A stretch of DNA of 64,000 nt, from assembly GCF_002854065.1 (NCBI RefSeq), contig NZ_CP024147.1; one strand, given 5' to 3'. This document shows positions 9,723 through 12,731 of this stretch, one piece after another; position 1 is the stretch's first letter; the number at the start of each line of letters is the position of its first letter. The notes under the pieces are model-generated. The model was not told where the DNA came from. It saw only the letters and a program-made list of their open reading frames with translations, and did not search any database. Origin of the DNA: Escherichia coli (GTDB lineage Bacteria; Pseudomonadota; Gammaproteobacteria; Enterobacterales; Enterobacteriaceae). The position numbers and the translations under genes are program-made.

Positions 9723-11309
9723 ATGAGTCATCGTGCACGACACCAATTACTGGCGTTGCCGGGCATTATCTTTTTAGTTCTCTTTCCCATCATTCTGTCG
9801 CTATGGATTGCCTTCCTTTGGGCAAAATCAGAAGTGAATAATCAGCTCCGAACCTTTGCTCAACTGGCACTGGATAAATCCGAGCTGGTCATTCGCCAGG
9901 CAGATTTAGTGAGCGATGCAGCAGAACGCTATCAGGGGCAAGTTTGCTCTCCAGCCCATCAAAAGCGAATGTTAAATATTATTCGTGGCTATCTTTATAT
10001 TAATGAATTGATCTATGCCCGTGATAACCATTTTTTATGCTCATCGCTGATAGCGCCTGTAAACGGCTATACGATTGCACCGGCCGATTATGAGCGTGAC
10101 CCTAACGTTTCTATCTATTATTACCGCGATACGCCTTTTTTCTCTGGCTATAAAATGACCTATATGCAGCGGGGAAATTATGTGGCGGTTATCAACCCTC
10201 TCTTCTGGAGTGAAGTGATGTCTGATGACCCGACATTGCAATGGGGTGTGTATGATACGGTGACGAAAACCTTTTTCTCGTTAAGCAACGAGGCCTCGGC
10301 AGCAACGTTTTCTCCGCTGATTCATTTGAAGGATTTAACCGTACAAAGAAATGGCTATTTATATGCGACAGTTTATTCGACAAAACGCCCAATTGCAGCC
10401 ATTGTTGCGACTTCATATCAACGTCTTATAGCCCATTTTTATAATCATCTTATTTTTGCGTTACCCGCCGGTATTTTGGGGAGTCTTGTTCTGCTATTAC
10501 TCTGGCTACGTATTCGACAAAACTATTTGTCTCCCAAACGCAAATTGCAACGCGCCCTAGAAAAACATCAACTTTGTCTTTATTACCAGCCAATAATCGA
10601 TATCAAAACAGAAAAATGTATCGGTGCTGAAGCGTTATTACGTTGGCCTGGTGAGCAGGGGCAAGTTATGAATCCGGCAGAGTTTATTCCGCTGGCAGAA
10701 AAGGAGGGGATGATAGAACAGGTAACTGATTATATTATTGATAATGTCTTCCGCGATCTGGGCGCGTACCTTGCAACACATGCTGATCGCTATGTTTCTA
10801 TTAATCTGTCGGCCTCCGATTTTCATACGTCACGGTTGATAGCGCGAATCAATCAGAAAACAGAGCAATACGCGGTGCGTCCACAGCAAATTAAATTTGA
10901 AGTGACTGAACATGCATTTCTTGATGTCGACAAAATGACGCCGATTATTCTGGCTTTCCGCCAGGCCGGTTACGAAGTGGCAATTGATGATTTTGGTATT
11001 GGCTACTCTAACTTGCATAACCTTAAATCATTGAATGTCGATATTTTGAAAATCGACAAATCGTTTGTTGAGACGCTGACCACCCATAAAACCAGTCATT
11101 TGATTGCGGAACATATCATCGAGCTGGCGCACAGCCTGGGGTTAAAAACAATCGCTGAAGGCGTCGAAACGGAGGAGCAGGTTAACTGGCTGCGCAAACG
11201 CGGCGTGCGCTATTGCCAGGGATGGTTCTTTGCGAAGGCGATGCCGCCGCAGGTGTTTATGCAATGGATGGAGCAATTACCCGCGCGGGAGTTAACGCGC
11301 GGGCAATAA
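9723..11309 (+). CDS. pdeC: c-di-GMP phosphodiesterase (CSS periplasmic domain + EAL)
   Basis: 528 aa from [11 protein letters not shown]-terminal TM, EAL-domain motifs ([22 protein letters not shown]). Confidence 0.88.
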
Positions 11310-11311
11310 AA

Positions 11312-11635
11312 CTACAGGCGGTGGCGATAATCGCTGGGAGTGCGATCAAACTGCCGACGGAAAACGCGGGAGAAGGTCTGCTGCGAGACATAACCCAGGT
11401 CCATTGCGATATCAAAAATCGGACGCTCGGTGGTGCGCAACTCAACGGCGGCCAGTAACAGGCGGCGTTGACGAATGTAATCGCCAAGCGTCTGATGCGT
11501 CACCGTGCGGAACATCCGTTGCAGGTACCACTTTGAATAGCCTGATTTTTTTGCGACGACATCAATGTTAAGCGGCTGGTCAATATGCTCGTCAATCCAT
11601 GCGATAAGATCCTGAATAATTTTCTGATGGGACAT
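11312..11635 (-). CDS. soxS: AraC-family superoxide-response transcriptional activator
   Basis: 107 aa MSHQKIIQDLIAWIDEHIDQPLNIDVVAKKSGYSKWYLQRMF. Confidence 0.95.
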   Translation of the reverse strand: MSHQKIIQDLIAWIDEHIDQPLNIDVVAKKSGYSKWYLQRMFRTVTHQTLGDYIRQRRLLLAAVELRTTERPIFDIAMDLGYVSQQTFSRVFRRQFDRTPSDYRHRL

Positions 11636-11691
11636 AAATCTGCCTCTTTTCAGTGTTCAGTTCGTTAATTCATCTGTTGGGGAGTATAATT

Positions 11692-11709
11692 CCTCAAGTT
11701 AACTTGAGG
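11692..11709. promoter_or_regulatory. SoxR binding site / soxS promoter spacer palindrome
   Basis: Perfect palindrome cctcaagttaacttgagg in the soxS-soxR divergent intergenic region. Confidence 0.8.
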
Positions 11710-11720
11710 TAAAGCGATTT

Positions 11721-12185
11721 ATGGAAAAGAAATTACCCCGCATTAAAGCGCTGCTAACCCCCGGCGAAGTGGCGAAACGCAGCGGTGTGGCGGTATCGGC
11801 GCTGCATTTCTATGAAAGCAAAGGGTTGATTACCAGTATCCGTAACAGCGGCAATCAGCGGCGTTATAAACGTGATGTGTTGCGATATGTCGCAATTATC
11901 AAAATTGCTCAGCGTATTGGCATTCCTCTCGCGACCATTGGTGAAGCGTTTGGCGTGTTGCCCGAAGGGCATACGTTAAGTGCCAAAGAGTGGAAACAGC
12001 TTTCGTCCCAATGGCGAGAAGAGTTGGATCGGCGCATTCATACCTTAGTGGCGCTGCGTGACGAACTGGACGGATGTATTGGTTGTGGCTGCCTTTCGCG
12101 CAGTGATTGCCCGTTGCGTAACCCGGGCGACCGCTTAGGAGAAGAAGGTACCGGCGCACGCTTGCTGGAAGATGAACAAAACTAA
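11721..12185 (+). CDS. soxR: MerR-family redox-sensing regulator with [2Fe-2S] cluster
   Basis: 154 aa; C-terminal [17 protein letters not shown] cysteine cluster. Confidence 0.95.
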
Positions 12186-12214
12186 AGCGCCACAAGGGCG
12201 CTTTAGTTTGTTTT
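12184..12214. terminator. hairpin terminator overlapping soxR stop (possibly bidirectional)
   Basis: aaagcgcc-acaa-gggcgcttt followed by agtttgtttt. Confidence 0.6.
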
Positions 12215-12458
12215 CCGGTCTTTGTCTTTCTCTCTATCCCGCTGGTACACAGGAGGGTTTCCCCCGACGTCAACACACCTCATTCGAGCACGTGGTGGAG
12301 GTTCCGGTTGGTGTTGATGCTTTAATTGTATGTCACCGACGTTTCTTCGCCAGTGTAAAAGTATACTTTTTAGCCGCAATATTTTTGTCATCTCAGACGA
12401 TTTTTTATCGCAATCCTGAACGGTATACGGCTCGATAACGCTGCAATCTTGCGCATCG

Positions 12459-12474
12459 ACGATAACGTTTGCGC
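12459..12474. promoter_or_regulatory. candidate PurR box upstream of ghxP
   Basis: acgataacgtttgcgc matches 13/16 of the palindromic PurR consensus ACGCAAACGTTTGCGT; a second AACGTTT-centred site lies at 12606-12621. Confidence 0.35.
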
Positions 12475-12731
12475 ATCAATTGCCTGGTTTTTCATCGTCA
12501 AGACAATAAAAGAGAAAAAAGCAGCAAACTTCGGTTGAAAAAGCCGCTATGATCGCCGGATAATCGTTTGCTTTTTTTTACCACCCGTTTTGTATGCGCG
12601 GAGCTAAACGTTTGCTTTTTTGCGACGCAGCAAATTGTCGCAAACCTGGAGCGGGAAGATAACGTTTCGCTGGCAGGGGATTGTCCGCCACGCATCTTGA
12701 CGAAAATTAAACTCTCAGGGGATGTTCTCTT

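Follow-up and report, generated by a model that had tools for sequence, protein, structure and literature searches.

Two probable PurR operators around a predicted promoter of the guanine/hypoxanthine transporter gene ghxP (yjcD) in Escherichia coli

We conclude, at a probability of roughly 0.88, that two boxes upstream of ghxP (formerly yjcD) in Escherichia coli, here called O1 and O2, are operators through which the purine repressor PurR controls this gene. In the window, by which we mean the whole 64-kb stretch of DNA that was analyzed, both boxes match the PurR motif far beyond chance, and it is documented that under ample hypoxanthine or guanine, the dimer of PurR with its corepressor sits on this intergenic region and ghxP mRNA drops. 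Both boxes and the regulation of ghxP by PurR are already on record and bring no new biology; the sole parts that might be new are the leader RNA of ghxP and the fixed geometry of its operators. The added value of the present work is an integrated map, in which O1, known from ChIP-chip, and O2, known from comparative genomics, are placed on either side of one invariant promoter; no single source gives O1, O2, the promoter and the leader together. Since GhxP imports guanine and hypoxanthine, which activate PurR, uptake would limit itself, as a negative feedback on the import of corepressor. Moreover, PurR control of ghxP sets how sensitive the cell is to toxic purine analogs taken up via GhxP (Kozmin 2013, PMC3809563).

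The two boxes, their conservation and the published record

In the E. coli window the order of the region is soxS-soxR-sraL-ghxP(yjcD)-yjcE (Table 1), and the gene layout of K-12 MG1655 is identical. The intergenic gap between soxR and ghxP measures 546 bp and holds both strong PurR boxes, one to each side of a conserved promoter. The segment 12100-12800 was matched in 5,420 of 5,426 complete E. coli genomes, with soxR and ghxP likewise annotated on either side. The terminator hairpin of sraL (12179-12209) doubles as a bidirectional terminator-like element.

Table 1. Features of the ghxP region in window coordinates; the promoter, the start site to which operator positions refer, and the RNA helices are predicted.
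Feature	Coordinates	Strand	Sequence	Remarks
soxS	11312-11635	minus		
soxR	11721-12185	plus		
sraL/ryjA small RNA	12178-12318	minus		Rfam RF01408, 153 bits; overlaps soxR 3' end
Conserved box	12449-12456		TTGCGCAT	Just upstream of O1; conservation 1.74 bits/position
PurR operator O1 (distal)	12459-12474		ACGATAACGTTTGCGC	18.6 bits; centre ~-104 from inferred start
Inferred ghxP sigma-70 promoter	12535-12564	plus	TTGAAA, GATAAT	-35 at 12535-12540, 18-bp spacer, -10 at 12559-12564
Candidate weak PurR operator O3	12558-12573		GGATAATCGTTTGCTT	Overlaps -10 hexamer and inferred start
Structured ghxP mRNA leader domain	12594-12695	plus		RNAalifold and covariation, 69 sequences
Helix P1	12594-12600/12689-12695	plus		Long-range; RNAalifold, compensatory changes
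PurR operator O2 (proximal)	12602-12617		AGCTAAACGTTTGCTT	19.5 bits; ~+31 to +47 from inferred start
Helix Px	12602-12611/12662-12671	plus		Left half of O2 with box 4; tentative
Hairpin P2	12621-12626/12637-12642	plus		RNAalifold, compensatory changes
Box 4	12656-12671	plus	AAGATAACGTTTCGCT	PurR half-site look-alike
Hairpin P3	12676-12679/12685-12688	plus		Weak in E. coli
ghxP Shine-Dalgarno	12718-12723	plus	AGGGGA	8 nt ahead of ATG at 12732
ghxP (yjcD) CDS	12732-14081	plus		449-aa ORF; guanine/hypoxanthine transporter, the regulated gene

An earlier note on this DNA had proposed two PurR-like boxes centred on AACGTT. The box at 12459-12474 reads as it had stated, and the second box also exists; its frame had been placed off by 4 bases. 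The frame 12606-12621 scores -20 bits as written, and the correct one, 12602-12617, has its central CpG at 12609-12610. The note had further suggested a scan with a PurR matrix, and for this we used a log-odds matrix made from 27 PurR ChIP-chip motifs (Cho 2011 Table 1, PMC3159470) with the ghxP site omitted. Both boxes come out at the top of the window and far above background: among 128,000 positions (64 kb, both strands), O2 ranks first and O1 second, and the third best match reaches 11.2 bits. Given the base composition of the window, the exact p values are 1.6e-7 for O2 and 3.3e-7 for O1, and chance alone would give 0.02 and 0.04 such matches, respectively, in the window, or 1.4 and 3.0 in a 4.64-Mb genome with both strands counted. 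Eleven of the 27 training sites score below O2 and eight below O1, and both scores fall inside the 12-25 bit range of these sites. Further, O1 and O2 are still the top two when a 14-site classical matrix (pur, gua, glyA, pyrD, carAB, gcvT) is applied, whether oriented or symmetrised, and in 80 related loci matches of at least 14 bits number 160 inside the ghxP upstream regions vs. 0 outside them (978,524 background positions). Both boxes are 16-bp imperfect palindromes that fit ACGNAAACGTTTGCNT around a central CpG.

One other stretch of the window, 63352-63367 (GGATAATCGTTTGCAT, 11 bits), was rejected as an operator: its score is at chance level, and a minus-strand ORF of 262 aa, presumably phnC from a reading of its N-terminus, has its start codon inside the stretch. 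The same stretch is almost identical to the weak box O3 described below. The conserved box that immediately precedes O1 gave no match to the matrix as a PurR site (-9.6 and -5.0 bits, overlapping 16-mer). Here, TTGCGCATC at 12449-12457 recurs 20 bp further on at 12469-12477, where the second copy makes up the right end of O1.

Conservation was assessed in one species-level genome collection, which upon scanning with the GhxP protein yielded 80 loci with 90-100% protein identity. They represent species of Enterobacteriaceae, among them Escherichia, Salmonella, Citrobacter, Enterobacter, Klebsiella, Raoultella, Kosakonia, Kluyvera, Buttiauxella, Cedecea, Mangrovibacter and other genera. O1 was found in 79 of the 80, almost always in the form present in the window; it is missing in Pluralibacter gergoviae, in which the remaining elements are kept. 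O2 was found in all 80 loci, with variants (AATCG core, GCGT end) that are still good PurR boxes. The information content of O1 is 1.93 bits/position vs. 0.68 for the sequence flanking it upstream and 0.94 for the spacer, and the boxes together have 1.8-1.9 bits/position vs. 0.7-0.9 in the spacers. In the multiple alignment the spacers are strongly diverged and nothing is alignable upstream of 12449. Part of the conservation of O2 could come from a role in the leader RNA. In 15 of the 17 scanned loci that carry sraL, the ghxP control region is separated from it by some 700-850 bp of additional sequence.

PurR has been located on this region by ChIP-chip, as the peak ryjA/yjcD at 4,275,855-4,276,485, equivalent to 12084-12714 of the window, with a log2 value of 2.08 in the presence of adenine and no peak in its absence (Cho 2011, PMC3159470). 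The motif named for this peak in the same work (PMC3159470), at 4,276,230-4,276,245, is O1, and the region, being 630 bp wide, spans O1, O2 and O3 together without telling which of them is occupied. The differentially expressed genes named in the main text of that paper (Cho 2011, PMC3159470) do not include yjcD. In a literature search for the sequences of the two boxes, Cho 2011 was also the one paper found to give either of them in its main text. According to Marbach 2012, as cited by Kozmin 2013 (PMC3809563), adenine represses yjcD in a PurR-dependent manner, and Kozmin 2013 (PMC3809563) mentions, as the authors' own unpublished result, that a purine analog lowers yjcD 4-fold. Moreover, ghxP belongs to the PurR-1 iModulon (Sastry 2019, PMC6892915; Rodionova 2021, PMC8376909); the supplementary motif site at 4,278,206 in Sastry 2019 (PMC6892915) is O1, and Rodionova 2021 (PMC8376909) treats ghxP as PurR-repressed. 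O2 is the -130 site of yjcD, at 4,276,372-4,276,387, among the sites matched to RegPrecise in a regulon reconstruction from 2015 (PMC4576408). The expression evidence for ghxP is second-hand, via Kozmin 2013, together with iModulon membership. The earlier note had read the boxes as consistent with purine repression of ghxP via PurR, unsure whether this regulation was established. The matrix scores, the conservation and the published ChIP-chip and expression reports all support it, and the doubt is resolved by the purine-dependent ChIP-chip signal, the iModulon and the repression reports in a literature that already documents PurR control of ghxP.

The predicted promoter and the spacing of the boxes

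Between O1 and O2 we predict a single promoter, which matches the sigma-70 hexamers at 10 of 12 positions and is the sole sigma-70-like site in 12100-12800. Transcription of ghxP would start from it near 12570-12572, and the positions given for the operators with respect to +1 are those implied by this predicted, conserved promoter. At least 95% of sequences agree in GATAAT, as they do at five of the six positions of TTGAAA (77 distinct blocks, 78 genomes), and the spacing of the two hexamers is invariant across 77 distinct spacing blocks (78 genomes); in three loci outside those blocks, TTGAAAA and GATAAT are present too. A second promoter beside O1 or O2 was rejected, as no acceptable -35/-10 pair was found there by scan or by eye. 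A start at or after O2 is disfavoured because the covarying helix P1 of the leader begins upstream of O2. As P1 starts at 12594, the transcript would begin upstream of that position, which fits the conserved promoter and means that O2, at about +31 to +47, is transcribed.

A third box, O3, lies over the -10 hexamer and the predicted start, and is a candidate for a weak operator. It scores 10.65 bits in E. coli, and the AGAT variants of other genera reach 13.8-14.0 bits; 3.5 matches at the level of O3 are expected by chance per window, so that the score alone is at chance level. CGTTTGC 3' of the -10 hexamer is retained in 78 of 80 species, and the sole loss of O3 is that in Mangrovibacter, which keeps the promoter. 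The distance between O1 and O3 is exactly 99 bp, free of any indel, in every one of the 78 genomes carrying both; the O3-O2 distance, in contrast, can be as short as 42 or as long as 205 bp. Within the O1-O3 interval, a 58-bp spacer is fixed in length and poorly conserved in sequence. The invariant 99-bp spacing may reflect cooperative or looped binding of PurR. PurR is a dimer without the tetramerisation helix of LacI and is not known to loop DNA or to bind cooperatively. For such a dimer no mechanism is established by which O1 would act from -104, and looping is offered as a hypothesis only.

Considering the arrangement of O1 and O2 around the invariant promoter TTGAAA-18-GATAAT, which we infer from sequence and conservation, each box could contribute to repression in its own way. 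O2, lying in the transcribed leader, would act as a roadblock that hampers promoter clearance or elongation, in the manner of PurR at purB and purR, and O3, over the -10 hexamer and the start, would block access of RNA polymerase. O1, located around -104, would be an auxiliary upstream site, its strict phasing with the promoter suggesting cooperation.

A covarying leader RNA

The ghxP mRNA is predicted to carry a structured leader domain that encloses O2. With helices P1, P2 and P3 taken together, 93.6% of cells are paired, vs. 25-70% when the partners are slid by 1-3 columns, and 13 pairs are changed on both sides, vs. 6.4 ± 1.5 in shuffles (0 of 500 shuffles); over the tests, 92-94% of cells were paired, with 13-15 compensatory pairs vs. 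6-7 in shuffles. G-U combinations outnumber A-C in the helices (96 vs. 28), which favours an RNA of the plus strand, the sense strand of ghxP. Minimum-free-energy folds contain P1 and P2 in both E. coli and Citrobacter, and additionally Px and P3 in Citrobacter. The support for the predicted structure is covariation, the thermodynamic stability of the E. coli and Citrobacter folds not being significant (z = -0.7 and -1.6). A scan of window positions 11000-13500 against Rfam 15 at E<=1 returned sraL and one weak unrelated match, and no leader family; in 20 orthologous loci nothing besides sraL reached the gathering score, purine riboswitches included.

The conserved block extends as a unit from about 17 nt upstream of O2 to the start codon, and the GGGG core of the Shine-Dalgarno sequence is retained in 67 of 69 ghxP leaders. 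Insertions are found mostly 5' of this block; a few genera (e.g. Buttiauxella) have them within the block, downstream of P2 and ahead of the start codon. Buttiauxella has an additional hairpin within the structured domain, and several genera have insertions of 45-160 bp in the 5' leader, some with GC-rich hairpins; the loci concerned are L053, L038, L065, L074 and L076, with the extra sequence between O3 and O2 or inside the leader.

Helix Px would pair the left half of O2 with the 3' part of a sequence referred to as box 4, and is tentative in that it rests on one covarying pair, the variable position in O2 changing along with its partner (UA 25, CG 24, UG 12). Box 4 has been proposed as an additional PurR site of yjcD at -76 (PMC4576408). 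We rejected it as a fourth operator: it scores 3.3 and 7.3 bits only, outside the range of verified sites, and the ten bases at its 3' end (12662-12671) complement the left half of O2. Because AAACGTTT is palindromic, the complement of a PurR half-site resembles a PurR half-site. Box 4 is probably the 3' strand of Px, and the operator predicted at -76 a false positive.

The P2 loop (12627-12636) has CCCC in 50 of 69 genera, complementary to the GGGG of the ribosome-binding site, and may constitute an anti-Shine-Dalgarno loop; in E. coli the loop has GCAGC and no CCCC. CAGGGGAT is present twice in the leader, 44 nt apart, at 12673-12680 and at 12717-12724, of which the latter is the ribosome-binding site. 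The two copies resemble the binding consensus of CsrA (GGA in A/U context), and a literature search for CsrA tied to ghxP or yjcD found no paper. Coding and terminator functions were discarded. An upstream ORF of 22 codons on the plus strand (12594-12662, MRGAKRLLFCDAANCRKPGAGR) has no Shine-Dalgarno sequence, the indels of the leader are not multiples of three, and the columns of its ATG vary as compensating P1 pairs, the start codon not being conserved. An ORF of 65 aa on the minus strand (12498-12695) is ruled out by the variable spacing of O3 and O2, and P2 is followed by no U-run of a terminator on either strand.

It is possible, at distinctly less than even odds, that the leader is an undescribed conserved RNA domain in which the O2 copy serves as DNA operator and helix strand at once and which adds post-transcriptional control, and that the O1-O3 spacing may mean cooperative or looped PurR. 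Such an RNA might sense a metabolite, sequester the ribosome-binding site through the C-rich P2 loop, or be bound by a protein such as CsrA at the repeated CAGGGGAU.

Competing readings and known systems

The location of O2 inside the RNA domain enclosed by P1, and the pairing of its left half with 12662-12671, where the variable position covaries, would suit a reading in which O1 alone is the working operator and O2 is kept mainly for the leader RNA (Px and the adjacent single strands), its likeness to a PurR box being secondary. It would also suit this reading that O1 alone is named by Cho 2011 (PMC3159470) and Sastry 2019 (PMC6892915). We consider it unlikely, however, since an accidental match of 19.5 bits (p=1.6e-7) within a leader of 160 nt is itself very unlikely, the invariant right half of O2, GTTTGC, lies outside Px, the O2 variants of other genera stay good PurR boxes of up to 22.9 bits, and the ChIP region includes O2 as well as O1. 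A central CG palindrome is common to many LacI-family operators, and the left halves of the boxes, CGATAAC and GCTAAAC, differ from ACGCAAAC; that another LacI/GalR-family regulator with a AAACGTTT core binds here, or that the boxes are chance palindromes, is nevertheless highly improbable. It is PurR itself that was immunoprecipitated in this region, in a purine-dependent manner (Cho 2011, PMC3159470), the scores of O1 and O2 are within the range of verified PurR sites, and statistics and conservation exclude chance.

Hardly any weight can be given to the view, invited by the ChIP label ryjA/yjcD, that O1 serves the divergent sraL/ryjA and not ghxP. O1 of E. coli does sit between sraL and ghxP, 141 bp from the 5' end of sraL. 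Yet, of the 20 loci scanned, 17 contain sraL, and only two of these (Escherichia L002 and L060) show a spacing of ~140 bp; in the other 15, Salmonella included, sraL ends ~800-1,000 bp from O1. O1 keeps its exact distance to the box over the ghxP promoter, and the region beyond 12449 is unalignable. With a variable distance to sraL and a fixed one to the promoter, O1 travels with ghxP, not with sraL, and it remains beside ghxP even with sraL some 865 bp off. The preferred reading remains that O1 and O2 are PurR operators of ghxP.

The operators of the pur regulon (purF, purHD, purT, purMN) are, like O1 and O2, 16-bp imperfect palindromes in which the CpG is central and the right half reads GTTTGC, and they share with ghxP the score range, the purine-dependent occupancy and the outcome, repression. 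At most pur promoters a single box lies over the -35 and -10 hexamers or in the gap between them (Cho 2011, PMC3159470), whereas ghxP would have two strong boxes off the core promoter, at about -104 and +39, and a weak one over the -10 hexamer. At purB and purR, PurR sites are found in the transcribed region, as with O2, and are said to block elongation; these sites are within the open reading frame (Cho 2011, PMC3159470), whereas O2, very near the start, falls in a leader that is untranslated and predicted to be structured. A strong upstream operator at a fixed distance, here 99 bp, from a weak operator at the promoter recalls gal OE/OI and lac O1/O3; the parallel to the looping of gal and lac is an analogy only, drawn from the spacing of the boxes at ghxP. 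The purine riboswitch leaders of Firmicutes (pbuG, xpt-pbuX) likewise are conserved, structured 5' leaders that precede a permease gene, and the ghxP leader differs from them in having no Rfam match, no identified ligand or expression platform, and unremarkable z-scores. Finally, xanP (TGGCAAACGTTTGCTT), adeP/yieG (ACGGCAACGATTGCGT), codB and tsx are, as ghxP, uptake genes repressed by PurR. What sets ghxP apart from these transporters is that the cargo of GhxP, guanine and hypoxanthine, consists of the corepressors of PurR, and uptake would in this way feed back directly on the activation of the repressor.
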